A stretch of 64,000 nt of DNA from Clostridia bacterium (GCA_017524665.1 JAFXVF010000015.1:135628-199627); one strand, 5' to 3'; counted from the first letter of the stretch, positions 2,312 to 49,402 are shown. Made by a program: numbers and translations. The notes: a model not told the origin generated them from the letters alone.

Positions 2312-3535
2312 TTACACTCCTAAAATTTTTCTTTTAGCTTCGTCAAATTCTTCTTGAGAAATTACACCATCATCTAATAATTTTTTCATTTTTGCTAATT
2401 TTTCATATGGATCTTCTGCTTGAGCTGCCGGTTGTACTGGTTGTGCTGGCTGAGCAGCTGCTGGTTGTTGTACTGGTTGTTGGAATGCTCCCATTGTTGC
2501 ACCTACGCTATTAATTCCCATTCCCATAAATCCAAGTCCTGTTCCTCCACCATTTTCTCCTGCTGCTTGGAATCCACGTGCAACTGATTGTTGCATAAAT
2601 GAATTTCCTCTTGCTCCTGATAAAGCATCTGCTTTCTTAACGTCGCTAAGAAGCTTCTTAGAATCTTCGTCATATTCTATAGCTGTTATAGCAACTTTTA
2701 CTATTTCTAATCCTCTATCAGATTTCCATTGATATCCTTGTTCTACAGCATATGATAAGCTTTGTGCAAATCCTATTTGATCTCCTTGTATTTTTGTTAT
2801 ACGATTTCCCTTGCTTGGATCGTTTGTATAATTAGAAAATGCTGCTGAAAGGCTTCCAACTACTTCATTGAATAATTGCTCTCCTGCAACGTTATCCATA
2901 TCTGCAAAATCAAATGGTCCAGATTCTGGTCTTAAGTATTCTACTGGTACGAAATTCTTTACAAATAAAATTGGATCAACAATTTTTAATGTATATGTTC
3001 CTCTTGTTACAGCTCCAACTTGTGCATTCATGTATGCATCATCCCAGTAAATTTCAGATTGTGTTCCAAATCTGTTTCCTGGTATTTCCTTTAAATTTAC
3101 ATATATTGCTGTTTGCTCTGTTGCTGGTATTCCACCAAATTTAAATCTTTCCCATGATGCTTTAAGTGAACTCATTATTCCATTTCCAGCTAAGAATGAC
3201 TGAGAATTTGGATCTGTTGAAGAATAAATAAATCCTCCTGGCTCTGTAATACATCCTGTTATAGCTCCATCTTGCATTGTAATTAAAGCTGTTCCTTCTG
3301 GTACAACTATTTTGCTTCCGTTTGAAATAACATTCTCAGATCCTTTTACGTTTGCTCCTCTTCCAGCATCAGTACTATTTTTAACTGCTTTATATATAGC
3401 AGCAGTTGCTGGTACATTTGTTTCTGGAGTCATAAACTCCTTCCATTCATCTGCTAGTGTTCCGCCTAGCGCTCCTGTAAATGCTTTAATAAATCCCATG
3501 TTAGTTTCCTCCTCTAATATTATATTTGCTTGCAT
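2312..3535 (-). CDS. SPFH/band-7-like protein (COG4260 'virion core protein'-like, YdjI-like) with C-terminal SHOCT domain
   Basis: 407 aa. The N-terminal MGFIKAFTGALGG... and overall layout resemble COG4260 SPFH-like proteins. The Q/P/A-rich linker is followed by a ...EDPYEKLAKMKKLLDDGVISQEEFDEAKRKILGV tail typical of SHOCT. Confidence 0.55.
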   Translation of the reverse strand: MQANIILEEETNMGFIKAFTGALGGTLADEWKEFMTPETNVPATAAIYKAVKNSTDAGRGANVKGSENVISNGSKIVVPEGTALITMQDGAITGCITEPGGFIYSSTDPNSQSFLAGNGIMSSLKASWERFKFGGIPATEQTAIYVNLKEIPGNRFGTQSEIYWDDAYMNAQVGAVTRGTYTLKIVDPILFVKNFVPVEYLRPESGPFDFADMDNVAGEQLFNEVVGSLSAAFSNYTNDPSKGNRITKIQGDQIGFAQSLSYAVEQGYQWKSDRGLEIVKVAITAIEYDEDSKKLLSDVKKADALSGARGNSFMQQSVARGFQAAGENGGGTGLGFMGMGINSVGATMGAFQQPVQQPAAAQPAQPVQPAAQAEDPYEKLAKMKKLLDDGVISQEEFDEAKRKILGV

Positions 3536-4390: not shown

Positions 4391-7168
4391 CTATTTTATT
4401 ACCTCTACGCATCTATGGCAAAGTGTTGGGTGGTCATGGTCATGTCCTACTGTTTCGTCATATCTCCAACATCTTTCACATTTTTCTCCAGATGCTACTT
4501 CTACTTTTACTCCGTATTTTTCGCCTTCATCTGCTCTAGAATTTTCCTCTATTACAACTTGTGAAACTATAAATACGTCTTGTAGTTCTTTTTCTACATC
4601 TTTTAAGAAGTCTAAATTTGCTCCTTCTGCATATAGTGTAACTTTTGCATTTAAAGAATGTCCTATTAGCTTTTCATTTCTTGCCATTTCAAGCTTTTTA
4701 GCAACTAATTCCTTTAAGTCTTCAATCTTATCCCATTTCTCTGCAAGTTCTTTGTTTTCATACTTGCTATTTGGTTCTGGGAAATATCCTAGCATTGGGC
4801 TTTGAGCCTTTTCATCAGATTTATGTGGCATAAACTTCCATATTTCTTCTGCAGTGAATACAGTCATTGGAGTTAGCATTTTCACTAAGTCTGATAGTAT
4901 GATAAACATTGTTGTTTGAGCTGCTCTTCTTTCAACTGAATCTGGTTTTGAAGTATAAAGTCTATCTTTTATAATATCTAGGTAAAAATTACTCATGTCA
5001 TTTACACAGAATTTATTTATTTCATGATATGCAATATGGAATTCATAAGTATCATAACTTTGAGTTACAACTTTTATTAATTCATTTAGCTTATATAATG
5101 CATATTTGTCTATGTCCATCAATTTTTCATATGGTACACATTCATCTGGGTTGAAGTCTGAGATGTTTCCAAGTATATATCTTGCTGTATTTCTTATTTT
5201 TCTATATACTTCAGTAATTTGTTTTAGTATGTCTTTAGATAAGCTTATTTCTGACTTGTAGTCTGAAGATAATACCCATAATCTTAATATGTCTGCTCCA
5301 TATTCCTTTATTACGTCTTGAGGGCTTATTACATTTCCTTCAGATTTTGACATCTTCTTGCCCTTTTCGTCTACTATAAATCCATGTGTTAATATTTCTT
5401 TATATGGTGCTACTCCTTTTGTTGCAACGCTTGTAAGTAGTGAAGATTGAAACCATCCACGATATTGGTCATTTCCCTCTAAGTACATATTGGCTGGTGG
5501 TAAACCACGTTCAGCTAAAACTGCTTCATGAGTTGATCCTGAATCGAACCAAACATCCATTATATCATTTTCTTTCTTAAAGTGTTTGCATCCACATTCT
5601 TTACATACAGCACCTTTTGGCATTAATTCTTCTTCTGGTAATTCATACCATACTGTAGAACCTTTTTCTCTAAATATGTCTTTTATTTTCTTTATTGATT
5701 CTGGAGTTATATATTCTTTTCCGCAGTCTTCACAATAGAATATTGGAATTGGAACACCCCAAGTACGTTGTCTTGAGATACACCAATCTGCTCTTTCTTT
5801 TACCATGCTAGAGATTCTTTCTTCTCCCCATGCAGGATACCATTTAACTGTTTTTATTGCTTCTAGAGCTTCATCTCTAAATCCTTCTACTGAAGCAAAC
5901 CATTGGTTTGTAGCACGGAATATTATAGGCTTTTTGCATCTCCAGCAATGTGGATATTGGTGAACCATGCTTTCTTTATGGAATAGATATTTATTGTCTT
6001 CAAGCCATTTTATAATTGCTTCATTTGAATCAGCATAGAACATGTTTTCAAAAGGTCCTGCACCTTCTCTTTGATATCCTTTTCCATCAACTGTTACAAT
6101 TATATCTAATCCATTTTTTAATCCGCAAAGGTAGTCTTCTTTACCATAGCTTGGTGCTGTGTGAACTGCACCTGTACCAGTATCTAGTTCAACTAAGATT
6201 GTATCATCGCTTCCTAATACAACTTTTGAAGTTCTATCAAGGAATGGATGCTTGCAAAGTGTGTTTTCAAGGTCACTTCCTTTGAATGTTTGCACAACTT
6301 TATATGAATCAATTCCTCCAACTTTCATTACTTCTTCAACAAGTTGAGCTGCTAACAAATAGCTTTCGTCTTTTGTTTCAACTAAGCTATAATCATAATC
6401 TCCACCAATTGTTATACCTGTGTTTCCTGGTAATGTCCATGGAGTTGTTGTCCATATTAAGAAATATGTTTTCTTTGTAGTATTTAGCTTAACACTAGGT
6501 TCTGTTACTTCAAATTTTACATATATTGAAGTTGTTTTATCTTCTTGGTATTCTATCTCTGCTTCTGCTAAAGCTGTTTCACAGTCTGTACACCAGTGAA
6601 CTGGTTTTAATCCTTTATATATGTATCCTTTTTCATACATTGTTCCAAATATACCTATTTGTCTTGCTTCAAATTCAGGTTGTAATGTAATATATGGATG
6701 TTCCCAATCTCCTAATACACCAAGTCTTTTGAATCCTTCTGTTTGCTTATCAACAAATGATAATGCAAAGTCACGGCATGTGTTTCTAAATTTGCTTACA
6801 GATACTTCATCACGATTTATTCCAAGTACTTGTATTGCTCTTCTTTCTGTTGGAAGGCCATGTGTATCATATCCTGGTATATATGGTGTGTAATATCCTT
6901 TTAAGTTTTTGTATCTTACTACTGTGTCTTTTAATATTTTATTTAATGCATGTCCTATATGGATTTCTCCATTTGCATATGGAGGGCCATCATGTAACAC
7001 ATAAGGTTCTTTTCCTTCATTCTTTTTTAGTGCTTTTTCGTAGAGCTTTCCTTCTTCGAAAACGGTTTCTAAAACTTTTGGTTCGTTTTCAGGTAAGCTT
7101 GCTCTCATTGGGAAGTCTGTTTTTGGTAAATTAAGCGTTTTACCATAATCTTTCTTTTCTTCTTCCAT
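4391..7168 (-). CDS. ileS: isoleucine--tRNA ligase
   Basis: 925 aa. HIGH motif (HIGHALNKILKD), KMSKS, N-terminal LPKTDFPMRASLPENEP, and C-terminal Zn-binding CxxC...CxxC, all typical of IleRS. Confidence 0.95.
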   Translation of the reverse strand: MEEEKKDYGKTLNLPKTDFPMRASLPENEPKVLETVFEEGKLYEKALKKNEGKEPYVLHDGPPYANGEIHIGHALNKILKDTVVRYKNLKGYYTPYIPGYDTHGLPTERRAIQVLGINRDEVSVSKFRNTCRDFALSFVDKQTEGFKRLGVLGDWEHPYITLQPEFEARQIGIFGTMYEKGYIYKGLKPVHWCTDCETALAEAEIEYQEDKTTSIYVKFEVTEPSVKLNTTKKTYFLIWTTTPWTLPGNTGITIGGDYDYSLVETKDESYLLAAQLVEEVMKVGGIDSYKVVQTFKGSDLENTLCKHPFLDRTSKVVLGSDDTILVELDTGTGAVHTAPSYGKEDYLCGLKNGLDIIVTVDGKGYQREGAGPFENMFYADSNEAIIKWLEDNKYLFHKESMVHQYPHCWRCKKPIIFRATNQWFASVEGFRDEALEAIKTVKWYPAWGEERISSMVKERADWCISRQRTWGVPIPIFYCEDCGKEYITPESIKKIKDIFREKGSTVWYELPEEELMPKGAVCKECGCKHFKKENDIMDVWFDSGSTHEAVLAERGLPPANMYLEGNDQYRGWFQSSLLTSVATKGVAPYKEILTHGFIVDEKGKKMSKSEGNVISPQDVIKEYGADILRLWVLSSDYKSEISLSKDILKQITEVYRKIRNTARYILGNISDFNPDECVPYEKLMDIDKYALYKLNELIKVVTQSYDTYEFHIAYHEINKFCVNDMSNFYLDIIKDRLYTSKPDSVERRAAQTTMFIILSDLVKMLTPMTVFTAEEIWKFMPHKSDEKAQSPMLGYFPEPNSKYENKELAEKWDKIEDLKELVAKKLEMARNEKLIGHSLNAKVTLYAEGANLDFLKDVEKELQDVFIVSQVVIEENSRADEGEKYGVKVEVASGEKCERCWRYDETVGHDHDHPTLCHRCVEVIK

Positions 7169-7194
7169 TTAAATCATTCCTTTCTCTTTTTTTC

Positions 7195-7401
7195 ATGTGT
7201 TCTAAAATAATAAATCTATATCTTACCACTGTTACCGCTCCCGGGAGAGTCTATTTTTTAAATACTCCCCTCTTCCCACTGGCGCTGTAGCAGTACTTCG
7301 TACTTAACAGCGCTCAGCGGTCCCCCCGAGCGGGTCGCCTTAAAAAATAGAAGCTCTCCCTCGCGCTAGTAACTACTTAAATTTATTATTTTAGAACACA
7401 T
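7195..7401. repeat. GC-rich palindromic insert (core 7216-7380) bounded by perfect 21-bp AT-rich inverted repeats (7195-7215 / 7381-7401), located in the ileS 5' leader
   Basis: The inverted repeat atgtgttctaaaataataaat / atttattattttagaacacat is perfect. The 165-nt core is about 55% GC in a 28% GC background. The core holds nested dyads: gctcccgggagagtctattttttaa vs ttaaaaaatagaagctctccctcgc; gcgctgt...acagcgc; agtac-ttc-gtact. Confidence 0.6.
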
Positions 7402-7640
7402 ACAAAAAATCCATTCCATCCTATAACTTAGGACGAAATGGATTAATAATTCCGCGGTACCACCTAATTTAGAAAAGCCTTATTGCTTTTCTCTCTTAAT
7501 TTATCTTTAACGCAAGATTTCAGCGACTTGTCCTACTATTAGTTCAAACAAGCAACTCCTAGGTGATGGCAAATTGTTTTATTCTACCGAACTTTCACCT
7601 TACATCGGCTCTCTAAAGACATATTTTCAATTTGTCGTAT
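7400..7640 (-). promoter_or_regulatory. T-box riboswitch leader of ileS
   Basis: The minus strand reads AATTAGGTGGTACCGCGG (plus 7453-7470), matching the T-box consensus AAUUAGGGUGGUACCGCG. Downstream on that strand is a terminator hairpin TCCATTTCGTCCTA/TAGGATGGAATGGA followed by TTTTTTG (plus about 7402-7445). An upstream AGAGAG (GA-motif-like) element and a candidate ATC specifier are also present. Confidence 0.8.
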
Positions 7641-7741
7641 CCTATTCAAAGTTTTTTAATTGTGTAGAATTATATCATGCAAATCTTAATAATGCAATAT
7701 CTTTATAAAAATTTGTTGTCTTTTTGTGTGAAATGTTTTCT

Positions 7742-13558: not shown

Positions 13559-14674
13559 TTACATTTCTAAATCCGGCTTTAATGAGACTAATGGACAAAT
13601 TGCATTATTTGCTATTAGAATTATTTTTCCCATCCAGCCAGAATCTCCTCCACTAACTCCAATTATGTAGCCTTTTGCCCCACAGCTTGGGGAACATAGC
13701 CAAAAGCCATTATAGTCTGATATATAATAAAAGTTGTTTAATATTTCATCTGGTTTGATTATATTAGCATCTGTGTCATAGCCATATCCATTTATAGCTA
13801 CACTACTTGAAGAAGGGCTTACAGCATATCCATAATTATTATCATTAAATGGATACATACATTCTAACTTGGTTCTATTTGAATTCAAATTTTCTGAATT
13901 TGTTTCGTCTGTTAAGCCATAATGTGTATTATAACTGTCTATATACATTTCTACACTTGCTGCGCCAATTACATAATTAATTCTATCAGATAGATTAGGG
14001 TTCACATTATTTTTTAAATTTTCCCATTTTTTTGTATCGGAAAGCCAAATCGCTACCTTCATATTTAAATTATCTGTTGAAGGTGCTAGCGTTTTTTCTT
14101 CACCAATTAATTTTTCTTTTGCATATAGTAGTGGATTTAGCTCTCTAATTTTTGAAGAAGCTAAATTACCCTCAACTGTTTCGAATGTATCAGTATTCAT
14201 AAATGAATAATAATTGTTCGTGCAGTCAGCTCTTAAATATATTGTCCCTGCTCCGTCTCCATATTTATTTTCAAAGTCAATCCAAAAAAGCCTATATTGA
14301 TTAGATACAACATATGTTTTACCATCTATTGTTATATTAGTTGGTGCTCCTGTATAATCTGTTGCAATTTTACCTAAATGTTCTGCAAAATTTGACTTTG
14401 TAAGAGTTAATTCTTCACTATTTCCATCTTTATCTGTTAATTTAATATTTACAGAGATTAAATTTGAAAATGCTTTATTTAATTCTTTTTCCATTAATTC
14501 TGTATTATAACTGTATTTATCTGTAGAATCTTTTGTTTTTGCAAATAGTCCTTCTTCGTTGGCTGAAAATGATATTGCAACTCCTGCTAAAATCAGCAAA
14601 ACAATTACCGTGATTACAAGTGCAATTAAAGTAATTCCTTCATTACGGCCCATAGCCTCTTTACTTTTCTTCAT
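13559..14674 (-). CDS. secreted/surface protein with atypical prepilin-like (class III) N-terminus
   Basis: N-terminus MKKSKEAMGRNEGITLIALVITVIVLLILAGVAIS: basic leader, Gly, then a 20-residue hydrophobic helix, as in type IV pilins, but with Ala instead of Glu at +5. The protein is paralogous at its N-terminus to the 61848-62075 ORF. Confidence 0.5.
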   Translation of the reverse strand: MKKSKEAMGRNEGITLIALVITVIVLLILAGVAISFSANEEGLFAKTKDSTDKYSYNTELMEKELNKAFSNLISVNIKLTDKDGNSEELTLTKSNFAEHLGKIATDYTGAPTNITIDGKTYVVSNQYRLFWIDFENKYGDGAGTIYLRADCTNNYYSFMNTDTFETVEGNLASSKIRELNPLLYAKEKLIGEEKTLAPSTDNLNMKVAIWLSDTKKWENLKNNVNPNLSDRINYVIGAASVEMYIDSYNTHYGLTDETNSENLNSNRTKLECMYPFNDNNYGYAVSPSSSSVAINGYGYDTDANIIKPDEILNNFYYISDYNGFWLCSPSCGAKGYIIGVSGGDSGWMGKIILIANNAICPLVSLKPDLEM

Positions 14675-15449: not shown

Positions 15450-15569
15450 TTAGGTAATATATTATTTATTTTTTGCTCCTTGTTGTCGCTTACGCTCCAT
15501 TCGCCTAGGGTCATTTCCACTCGGGGAGCTTCCCTACGCGTCGCTTAAAATAAATAATATATTACCTAA
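15450..15569. repeat. GC-rich core (15473-15546) bounded by perfect 23-bp AT-rich inverted repeats (15450-15472 / 15547-15569)
   Basis: The arms ttaggtaatatattatttatttt / aaaataaataatatattacctaa are perfect. The core ...cgcttacgctccattcgcctagggtcatttccactcggggagcttccctacgcgtcgc... is GC-rich and internally dyadic. The architecture is the same as the 7195-7401 element. Confidence 0.55.
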
Positions 15570-22994: not shown

Positions 22995-23069
22995 GGCCCC
23001 TTGGTCAAGCGGTTAAGACGCAGCCCTCTCAAGGCTGAATCATGGGTTCGATTCCCGTAGGGGTCACCA
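22995..23069 (+). tRNA. tRNA-Glu (anticodon CUC)
   Basis: 75 nt with 3' CCA. Cloverleaf: acceptor GGCCCCT/GGGGTCA; anticodon stem CAGCC/GGCTG with loop CTCTCAA; T-arm GGGTTCGATTCCC. Close to B. subtilis tRNA-Glu. Confidence 0.8.
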
Positions 23070-47946: not shown

Positions 47947-48615
47947 ATGAGAAAAAGAATTATATTTATCATTGCATGTTTTTGGATTATCATTTCTTTT
48001 TTGCTAATACGTGCAACATATTCAAAATATTTAACTTCATTTAATGCTGGAACAAATATTGATATAAGTGTTTGGAACATAGTTTTAAATGATCAAAATA
48101 TAATTAGAGATTCTGATTTTACTGAAAATTTAACATTGGAGTTTCCAGGTGACGATTATTATATAGAAGATTATATAGTTCCTGGTGCAGTTGGTTATTT
48201 TGATTTAGAAATAGATACAACTAGTGTTTCAATGCCTTTTAAGTACACTGTTACAGTTGAACCAGATGACGATAACGAAATAGATGATATAGATGTTATT
48301 GGTTATTCACTAAATGGAAATAATAATACAATTATATATTTAGACGAAACTCACACAGAAATTTCAAACACTGCATTAGCTACTGGCTCAACTTCTTCTA
48401 TCAGGGTTTATGTTCAATGGGTCGATGAAGGCACACAAGTTTTGGATGATGACGACGATACAGATCTTGCATTAAATGAAGCTGTCGCTGTTGTAGTAGT
48501 AACTGTAGATTTTGAGCAAATTTCAGCCGCAACTTCTATGAGTTCAAACACAAATACTAATAATACGACAAATACTACTAATACTAATACCAATACAACA
48601 AATACTATTCCTTAA
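47947..48615 (+). CDS. secreted protein with SipW-cognate-like signal peptide and C-terminal TN-repeat tail
   Basis: N-terminus MRKRIIFIIACFWIIISFLLIRATYSKYLTSF. C-terminal TNTNNTTNTTNTNTNTTNT low-complexity tail. Confidence 0.5.
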   Translation: MRKRIIFIIACFWIIISFLLIRATYSKYLTSFNAGTNIDISVWNIVLNDQNIIRDSDFTENLTLEFPGDDYYIEDYIVPGAVGYFDLEIDTTSVSMPFKYTVTVEPDDDNEIDDIDVIGYSLNGNNNTIIYLDETHTEISNTALATGSTSSIRVYVQWVDEGTQVLDDDDDTDLALNEAVAVVVVTVDFEQISAATSMSSNTNTNNTTNTTNTNTNTTNTIP

Positions 48616-48631: not shown

Positions 48632-48717
48632 TGAGACTAAGATAAATTTGGGGACGTGTCTAAAAATTACCAATTGTGGTAATTTTTAGACACGTCCCCA
48701 AATTTATCTTAGTCTCA
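48632..48717. repeat. 41-bp perfect inverted repeat (hairpin, 4-nt loop attg) between convergent genes
   Basis: tgagactaagataaatttggggacgtgtctaaaaattacca / tggtaatttttagacacgtccccaaatttatcttagtctca. No mismatches over 41 bp. Confidence 0.8.
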
Positions 48718-48724
48718 TCTTACT

Positions 48725-49402
48725 TTAGCTTGTTGCTGGAGTTATCGGTTGATCTTGATGTTGTATAACAGTTATTCTAATGATTGCCTGAATTACAGGT
48801 TCTCCATTATTGTCTTCATAATACTCATATGCTCTTGTACCATAATCTGTATCGGTTTCATCATCACCTGTTTCATATGCCCACCCAAATCTGATTGAAA
48901 TTGAACTACTCTGTCCAGTCTGCAACGTTGCTTGAGCTGTCTGTACAGTAATTTGAAACGGAAAATCATTTTGTAATTTGCTTAGTAATTGTGCTGCTGT
49001 TTGTACTGTTGCTCCCTGTGGAGTGCTTCCCAGTTCTTGAACATATTCTGAAGAATAATATTCATCATCAAATATTCTAATATATTTTACCATGTATGTT
49101 ATGTCTGCTGGTCTTTCTCCAGAGTTTCTTATATCTACAGTTTGAACCCTGTCTTGCATTCCAGGATATGCATGAGTAATAACAAAATTAAACTCTCTTT
49201 CGACCATTTCTTCATCTACTTCAAACTCAACTCTCCACGCATCAACGTGTGCAGTTAAGTTTGTAGATACAGTAGTTGCATATAAAAACCATGCATATGT
49301 ATTAAATATAAGAGTAACTGATAGCAAAAAAAGTGTACGCAAAGTGACTCTATGTTTTCTTCGTCTCTCTTTTCGATTAAGCCTATGATGCTTCCTAGCC
49401 AC
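48725..49402 (-). CDS. TasA-like secreted protein with SipW-cognate-class signal peptide
   Basis: Highly basic N-terminus (MARKHHRLNRKERRRKHR) + TM + NTYAWFLYATTVS. Confidence 0.55.
   Translation of the reverse strand: MARKHHRLNRKERRRKHRVTLRTLFLLSVTLIFNTYAWFLYATTVSTNLTAHVDAWRVEFEVDEEMVEREFNFVITHAYPGMQDRVQTVDIRNSGERPADITYMVKYIRIFDDEYYSSEYVQELGSTPQGATVQTAAQLLSKLQNDFPFQITVQTAQATLQTGQSSSISIRFGWAYETGDDETDTDYGTRAYEYYEDNNGEPVIQAIIRITVIQHQDQPITPATS

Follow-up and report, generated by a model that had tools for sequence, protein, structure and literature searches.

A GC-rich palindromic insertion, probably a small dispersed repeat, between the T-box terminator and the ribosome-binding site of ileS in a Clostridia bacterium

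What kind of element is a GC-rich, palindromic stretch of DNA that lies between the T-box terminator and the ribosome-binding site (RBS) of ileS in an AT-rich genome, and what might it do to the message that carries it? The element, designated E1 herein, occupies 207 bp (7195-7401) of a 64,000-nt stretch of Clostridia bacterium DNA, referred to as the window, and had been singled out in an earlier reading made from the sequence alone. In the present study, we propose that E1 is probably a small palindromic dispersed repeat without coding capacity, whose insertion is specific to the lineage of the window, a MITE/REP-like passenger belonging to an undescribed family. The actual repeat unit comprises the inner, GC-rich ~140 nt and is set in locus-specific, perfect 21-bp AT-rich arms.

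Anatomy of E1 and its place in the ileS leader

The ileS gene is located on the minus strand (4391-7168, ATG at 7168-7166) as an ORF of 925 aa, whose homologues, named isoleucine--tRNA ligase, carry tRNA-synt_1, Anticodon_1 and zf-FPG_IleRS domains. Upstream, on the same strand, a T-box leader was identified at 7426-7658 (Rfam RF00230, full-length model, 123.2 bits; gathering score, 93), with the Ile specifier AUC as read off the Rfam alignment. The leader is followed by a terminator (7399-7444, minus strand) composed of a hairpin at 7408-7444 and the U-tract AUUUUUUGUA, which the terminator scan reported as 16 pairs and then TTTTGTATGT, and the SD-like sequence GAAAGGAA of ileS is found at 7177-7184 (minus strand). 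E1 starts at 7401, directly past the U-tract, and ends upstream of the RBS, and the distance from the end of the T-box model to the ileS ATG is 257 nt. The placement between terminator and RBS, as claimed by the sequence-only reading, is thus borne out by Rfam, the terminator scan and the sequence. E1 is not part of the T-box structure, because it is outside the RF00230 model (the match stops at 7426, and the terminator at ~7399) and relatives possess a full T-box without it. The same reading had stated that every read-through transcript carries the element in its 5' untranslated region; the anatomy behind this statement is right, and E1 would be transcribed only upon T-box read-through, with only read-through transcripts carrying it. 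Since E1 is located downstream of the terminator, it has no influence on the T-box decision, which precedes its transcription. Two further candidates were rejected, namely an intrinsic terminator within E1 (no hairpin is present ahead of either T-run) and an internal promoter bypassing the T-box (a single weak 9/12 site was present where chance alone predicts 2.5).

The 207 bp of E1 comprise a 165-nt core between AT-rich inverted repeats, ATGTGTTCTAAAATAATAAAT (7195-7215) and ATTTATTATTTTAGAACACAT (7381-7401), which are 100% complementary over 21/21 bp, exactly as had been noticed earlier. In the ileS sense, the 5' arm (7381-7401, minus strand) reads AUGUGUUCUAAAAUAAUAAAU and is identical in three independent Logan assemblies, and the 3' arm (7195-7215, minus strand) stops 26 nt short of the ileS ATG and ~10 nt short of the SD. 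With mismatches allowed, the inverted repeat can be followed to 32 nt at 91% (7187-7218 / 7378-7409), and in this extension the terminator U-tract pairs with the A-run ahead of the ileS RBS. Within the arms, and separated from them by spacers of 8 and 16 nt that are specific to the ileS locus, lies the inner GC-rich palindromic unit (TTAC...GTAA; 7232-7372, minus strand). This unit is an imperfect palindrome with ends of the form TTAC-N8-GGGAGAG(C)T(T)CTATTTTTTAA; the left end (7372) is fixed by a homologous copy in another contig, L032, which is described below, and the right end (7232) is placed only by the GTTAC/GTAAC symmetry. All of the nested dyads reported previously for the core are present, i.e. 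GAGAGTCTATTTTTTAA / TTAAAAAATAGAAGCTC at 7245-7261 / 7340-7356, GCGCTGT...ACAGCGC and AGTAC-GAA-GTACT. The inner dyad is formed by the arm GGGAGAGCUUCUAUUUUUUAA (7340-7360, minus strand) and its partner UUAAAAAAUAGACUCUCCC (7243-7261, minus strand), and the apical hairpin (7282-7313, minus strand) consists of the 7-bp helix GCGCUGU/ACAGCGC, a 5-bp stem and a GAA loop.

The GC content is 50.3% in the core (7216-7380), 53.6% at 7233-7372 and 65% at the 60-nt peak, compared with 31.2% in the whole window. The values given before, 55% for the core and 28% for the genome, are therefore to be corrected, and the contrast is nonetheless real. Stops are present in every frame of the core, which is non-coding, and a coding remnant was rejected on this basis.

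A second element, E2 (15450-15569, minus strand), is located between tsaD and a metallophosphoesterase gene and consists of perfect 23-bp AT arms (15450-15472 / 15547-15569) around a 74-nt core with a GC content of 57%. In both elements, the GC content of the arms is host-like (9-14%), versus 50-57% in the cores. The architecture of E1 had been said to recur at this site, and this holds for the architecture itself and for a short junction motif, but not for the sequence, as no significant similarity between E1 and E2 was detected using blastn or nhmmer; the perfect arms of the two elements are wholly different. The short motifs common to both are CGCG(T)AGGGA(G)AGCT and a T-run + AAG(G)CGAC junction, and the latter is also observed in L032, as TTTTTTTAAGCGAG. 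We regard E2 as another insertion of the architectural class to which E1 belongs, and possibly as a distant relative.

When the window was simulated 60 times under a first-order Markov model, perfect spaced inverted repeats reached at most 17 nt, with a mean of 12.7 nt for the longest in each simulation, and the inverted repeats of E1 and E2 are beyond chance. The fold energy of E1 is -94.8 kcal/mol in the ileS sense (z = -9.9 against shuffles) and -78.6 kcal/mol on the opposite strand (z = -11.6), the inner unit alone (7232-7372) reaches -65.5 kcal/mol (z = -5.9), and the two strands of E2 reach -50.8 and -44.9 kcal/mol (z = -7.9 and -7.7). That both strands fold far better than shuffles is expected of a DNA palindrome. 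In E1, the fold of the ileS-sense strand is more stable by 16 kcal/mol than that of the opposite strand and contains five G-U pairs versus one. Assembly error is not the source of either element: over 20.7 kb, E1 and E2 included, an ENA contig (L029) matches with 100% identity, and the visible parts of both are reproduced exactly by raw-read Logan assemblies (three runs each, four different runs overall). In the ENA assembly ERZ27256873, contig k141_418720 is identical to the window.

Other features of the window were recorded as separate observations. A 41-bp perfect palindrome with a 4-nt spacer (48632-48717), far longer than the other terminator-like hairpins of the window, is located between the convergent ORFs 47947-48615 (plus strand) and 48725-49402 (minus strand), neither of which has a Pfam match. 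A 631-aa alpha-amylase-family ORF (PF00128; 59860-61755) contains repeated stretches of 50-57% GC, with GC-rich DNA continuing to ~62750, and the region 59860-62750 looks horizontally acquired. The only tRNA gene reported by ARAGORN in the window is tRNA-Glu at 22995.

Orthologous sites and a homologue at an unrelated locus

Among the available relatives, the most similar IleS proteins share 80-85% identity with that of the window, and exact-protein searches with this IleS, with P0001 and with TsaD gave no match. In L010/L024, with 82% identity, the gene order is the same as that in the window (M50 peptidase, tsaD, phosphoesterase, trigger factor, clpP, clpX, tyrS, PMI and ileS), the T-box is present at 2734-2961 and the ATG at 3001, and E1 is absent; the L010 terminator runs directly into UUAUUAUUGUUAGGAGG. 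L005, with 80% identity, possesses a complete T-box (2714-2937; ATG at 3001) and also no E1, and the element is likewise missing from L001 and L009. Throughout the related genomes with the same gene order, only 39-63 nt separate the terminator from the RBS, and the T-box is intact in two of them. At the second site, the tsaD-phosphoesterase spacer measures 193 nt in the window versus 82 nt in L024, a gap roughly equal to the 120-nt E2, and E2 is missing at this syntenic L024 spacer. The sequence-only reading had named empty sites among the observations to look for, and such sites are present in the ileS leaders of L010/L024, L005 and L001 for E1 and in L024 for E2. Because E1 and E2 are absent from the orthologous sites, and because repeated independent loss is less parsimonious, both elements were most simply gained in the lineage of the window.

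Several additional observations were made in these relatives. In L001 (2880-3003), the T-box is mostly gone, and a terminator-like hairpin and U-tract remain directly ahead of the RBS; in L009 (1893-2079), only the start of stem I remains of the ileS T-box, and both remnants are below the Rfam threshold. The regulation of ileS seems to be decaying or changing in this clade. Between the trigger factor and phosphoesterase genes of the window, a 371-aa ORF with no Pfam match (13559-14674) is observed that is absent from the otherwise syntenic L024. Downstream of ileS in L010 (5790-6100), several long AT-rich hairpins are present, including a perfect ~22-bp stem (gcattctcattattaacttgta / tacaagttaataatgagaatgc), together with a further dyad-rich stretch, and long AT-rich hairpins may be common in the clade of L010 and the window.

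A homologue of the E1 interior was revealed by searching JGI metagenomes with GCGCGAGGGAGAGCTTCTAT, and L032 (Ga0247609_10650786) was the sole contig found. The homologous segment (L032 1022-1112) is located 28 nt upstream of spoIIIAE (Pfam Spore_III_AE) and faces away from this gene, so that E1 and the L032 copy have opposite orientations relative to their neighbouring genes. The nhmmer comparison with the E1 core gave E = 5e-11, and the homology corresponds to window 7372-7282. It begins abruptly at TTACTAGCG (window 7372), and the left flank in L032 is unrelated to the E1 spacer and arm, so that the 5' AT-rich arm is not present beside this copy. The first 31 nt, which include the inner arm at 7340-7360, are identical (31/31), followed by T7 in L032 versus T6 in E1; beyond this block, the conserved GGGGGGACCGC, GCGCTGTTAAG and TACAGCGCC alternate with diverged stretches. 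The apical hairpin of L032 maintains its architecture of a 7-bp helix, an internal loop, a short stem and a triloop, and the apical stem AGUAC/GUACU of E1 is replaced by AGGC/GCCU with a UUU loop, corresponding to two double compensatory changes. The copy is partial, as the contig stops inside the element and leaves the 3' half and its flank out of view. The SpoIIIAE of L032 has a 100% match in ENA entry P0121 (a 2,044-nt contig), and all of its other relatives show at most 82% identity; on this basis L032 is taken to be an organism other than that of the window, whose own spoIIIAE was not seen. Further copies had been proposed as a check on the earlier reading, and one homologous, partial copy of the E1 interior is thus found at an unrelated locus. 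That reading had taken the arms and core together as the unit. However, since the AT arms are not common to the homologous copy, the segment bounded by the arms is not the repeat unit, and only the inner ~140 nt recurs elsewhere, without the 21-bp arms.

Other searches for E1 were negative within their scope. Neither the 64-kb window nor ~150 kb of related loci yielded a second copy. A collection of 185,579 species-representative genomes was scanned with two patterns, and no real match was obtained: the first, with the central 23-mer of E1, was empty, and the second (GGGAGAGN{0,2}TCTATTTTTTAA) produced 9 matches, approximately the chance number, in terminator-like or unrelated sequence. No E1 match was found in six scans of viral contigs. 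Of the metagenome scans, the first was empty and the second gave L032 only. Two of the patterns used in these genome, viral-contig and metagenome scans demanded ...TTTTTTAA, and an L032-type copy (T7) would fail them. Using blastn against plasmids and phages, chance fragments only were obtained for E1 and none for the E2 core, and a full-text literature search for the E1 19-mer gave no match. Rfam 15, which had been suggested as a check for a known RNA identity, contains no family overlapping E1 or E2, either at the gathering threshold or at E = 10. A side observation from these searches is a terminator-like hairpin between two genes in a Sangeribacter sp. MAG (L021 5560-5625), which shares GGGAGAG-NN-TCTATTTTTTAA-NN-CGACCCG with E1. 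The likeness exceeds the search pattern by CGACCCG, and the nhmmer E-value of 0.011 was obtained in a small database. Judged by its sequence, this hairpin could be either a chance resemblance or a distant relative of E1.

The raw-read assemblies offer a hint of more copies. In Logan k=31 contigs of the species of the window, three runs halt at the same E1 base, after ...TACTAGCGCGAGGGAGAGCTTCTATTTTTT, and this stop point coincides with the end of the block common to L032, at the T7 (L032) / T6 (E1) difference. Contigs in three runs begin at the same E2 base, with GCGACGCGTAGGGAAGCTCCCCGAGTGGAA. CGCG(T)AGGGA(G)AGCT falls within both 30-mers flagged by these breaks. As a control, two Logan contigs end within a 30-mer that codes for the widely conserved TsaD motif GIESSCDET, and it follows from this control that breaks in k=31 assemblies mark 30-mers shared with other DNA of the sample. 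The breaks inside E1 and E2 therefore hint at more copies. The candidate target-site duplications are only the self-complementary dinucleotides AT (E1) and TA (E2), which are indistinguishable from the inverted repeat, and the flanks of the E1 inner unit, AAGTAG / CAGTGG, match at 4/6 positions.

Identity of E1

The sequence-only reading had offered three identities for E1, and that of a MITE/REP-like mobile hairpin is favoured herein based on the empty sites and the one further copy. This interpretation is in keeping with the non-coding nature of E1, its folding on both strands, the opposite orientations of the two copies, an intergenic location within operons, the foreign composition and the empty orthologous sites. 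As in MITEs, E1 is shorter than ~500 bp and non-coding, with terminal inverted repeats and empty orthologous sites; two pairs of candidate termini are available, i.e. the outer perfect 21-bp arms or the inner imperfect GTTAC...GGGAGAG..CTATTTTTTAA. Membership is incomplete with regard to target duplication, a transposase partner and a reliable copy number, an autonomous relative was not found either, and mobility, copy number and mode of movement are what we infer from the features above. In all likelihood E1 is a passenger, either selfish or neutral, its neutrality likewise being judged from these features. Integron attC sites and IS200/IS605-type ends were rejected, as the ends misfit the RYYYAAC/GTTRRRY core sites and there are no individual end hairpins, and a retron ncRNA was rejected because no reverse transcriptase is located nearby.

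Simple transposition of the inner unit does not explain the perfect AT arms. Quasipalindrome-templated mutation is a known mechanism of template switching at hairpins. A tentative explanation, which we consider possible and to which we give less than even weight, is that the arms do not belong to any mobile unit: either template switching across the inserted GC hairpin copied one AT flank in inverted form, or the inner unit is nested in an older AT-rich hairpin element. The host-like GC content of the arms against that of the cores would fit a local origin, as would the fact that the arms are perfect in each element and yet unlike each other in E1 and E2, and the unrelated sequence in L032 at the place of the E1 arm and spacer. 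In addition, the E1 3' arm opens with the same 10 nt that are found past the terminator in L010, ATTTATTATT, but this similarity is one of low-complexity AT sequence, and three candidate ancestral leaders align alike to the relative (scores of 29, 30.5 and 32.5). Against this origin also stand the position of the 3' flank of the L032 copy outside the contig, such that the arms of that copy are not visible, and an intermediate allele that was not seen.

Selection on an RNA is a less favoured explanation, and we regard it as unlikely that E1, and perhaps E2, is a functional RNA module, which would act either as a cis element tuning the stability or translation of the ileS mRNA after read-through or as an sRNA cut from the leader at the 21-23-bp duplex. 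GC-rich islands within AT-rich intergenic DNA serve as the signature by which structured RNAs are sought (PMC6429828, PMC11109978). The 31/31-nt identity between organisms whose SpoIIIAE relatives are at most 82% identical, the two double compensatory changes that maintain the apical stem, the 16 kcal/mol advantage and G-U excess of the ileS-sense strand, and the location of both E1 and E2 in the sense orientation 26-51 nt before the start of the downstream gene are all consistent with such a module. Block conservation, apical compensatory changes and the 5:1 ratio of G-U pairs thus fit a selected structure as well as a selfish repeat; however, the covariation comes from two sequences only, and the G-U excess is weak. 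Moreover, E1 is absent from orthologous ileS leaders with an intact T-box and is therefore dispensable for ileS control, the L032 copy is directed away from spoIIIAE, Rfam gives no match even at the permissive threshold, and E1 has neither a terminator nor, apart from the single weak site at below the chance number, a promoter of its own. The other two identities offered from the sequence, i.e. a second cis-regulatory RNA and a small ncRNA, are accordingly unsupported by the Rfam search, by the orthologous T-box leaders and by the opposite orientation in L032.

A bolder and very improbable view unites these elements. E1, E2 and the L032 copy would form a class of ~75-140-nt GC-rich RNA/DNA modules with a T-run + AAG(G)CGA(C/G) junction, which enter AT-rich leaders and spacers and gain perfect 21-23-bp arms copied from the target. 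The arms would then be made-to-measure RNase III sites, and the modules would behave like an intervening sequence of mRNA, being cut out or cutting the T-box leader off.

The view that E1 and E2 are invertible DNA segments, i.e. phase-variable switches bounded by inverted repeats, is scarcely credible: a short segment between inverted repeats and assembly breaks at the repeat/core junctions would suit it, but a single orientation is observed in all assemblies (three runs at the outer E1 junction and three at the E2 core-to-3'-arm junction), which makes a switch unlikely, the E2 contigs span the whole core and halt only at the far arm, contrary to what inversion polymorphism predicts, the nine neighbouring genes scanned are housekeeping genes with no recombinase among them, and 74-165 bp is very short for recombinase-mediated inversion.

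If a MITE/REP-like insertion is the correct reading of E1, an undescribed small repeat family would be added from uncultured gut-type Clostridia, and a T-box leader would be seen to tolerate 200 nt of structured sequence inserted between terminator and RBS. MITE-like dispersed repeats are an ordinary and well-known kind of element, and E1 most likely belongs to a family of them that is undescribed. Such a case is of use to annotators, who routinely call candidate riboswitches or sRNAs from GC-rich intergenic islands of AT-rich genomes, and it bears on the possible cargo of T-box-controlled mRNAs. The finding would be weightier if the locus-specific AT arms derive from the target or if processing of the hairpin alters the fate of the ileS mRNA.

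Possible fate in the ileS message and the closest known systems

Upon read-through, the RNA of E1 is predicted to fold into an irregular hairpin ~100 bp long, composed of four layers: an AU stem of 21-25 bp, then a GC stem, a second AU stem of 11-12 bp, and an apex rich in GC. In the MFE structure with this hairpin, the SD and the AUG are single-stranded and the RBS is free. The perfect terminal duplexes of 21 bp (E1) and 23 bp (E2) correspond to RNase III substrates in geometry only. RNase III may cleave the perfect 21-bp AU duplex at the base of E1; bacterial RNase III substrates are of this length, and cleavage would part the T-box leader from the ileS message. On this structural model, processing at the E1 duplex would be the most plausible side effect of the insert and its likeliest phenotypic consequence.

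Several known systems resemble E1 in part. The GC clusters of yeast mitochondrial genomes are GC-rich, palindromic, putatively mobile inserts of ~30-60 bp in very AT-rich intergenic DNA; they are eukaryotic and organellar, shorter than E1 and without homology to it, and serve as an analogy only. The intervening sequences (IVS) of 23S and 16S rRNA are sporadic inserts of ~100-200 nt whose ends form a long duplex and which are removed by RNase III. E1 is of similar size and also sporadic with paired ends, but IVS are located in rRNA helices, whereas E1 is located in an mRNA leader, and a cut mRNA would lose its 5' leader rather than fragment harmlessly. Among the Firmicutes, bcr1 of Bacillus cereus is a small, dispersed, hairpin-forming repeat. 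The BOX, RUP and SPRITE elements of pneumococci are described, in two reports, as short, non-coding, hairpin-forming intergenic repeats that are often found within transcription units and have mostly unknown or modest effects on their neighbours (PMC3049150, PMC2229807). E1 resembles BOX, RUP, SPRITE and bcr1 in being short, non-coding and hairpin-forming in a low-GC Gram-positive genome, and differs from them in having no sequence similarity and a layered structure of AT arms, GC stem, AU stem and GC core.

A review of prokaryotic MITEs gives traits of this kind, namely an intergenic position, stable stem-loop transcripts and, for Correia elements, cleavage of the inverted repeats by RNase III (PMC10969869, PMC2649163). 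The Correia elements of Neisseria (CREE, or NEMIS) have terminal inverted repeats of ~26 bp, are co-transcribed, form a transcript hairpin that RNase III binds and cleaves, and can create promoters (PMC2649163, PMC10969869). They differ from E1 in their hundreds of near-identical copies, TA target duplication and IHF site, and share no sequence similarity with it, whereas E1 has one extra partial copy, no evident duplication, a GC-rich composition in an AT-rich host and outer arms that are specific to the locus. In common with the Correia elements of ~100-160 bp, E1 is a non-coding, palindromic, intergenic repeat with terminal inverted repeats.
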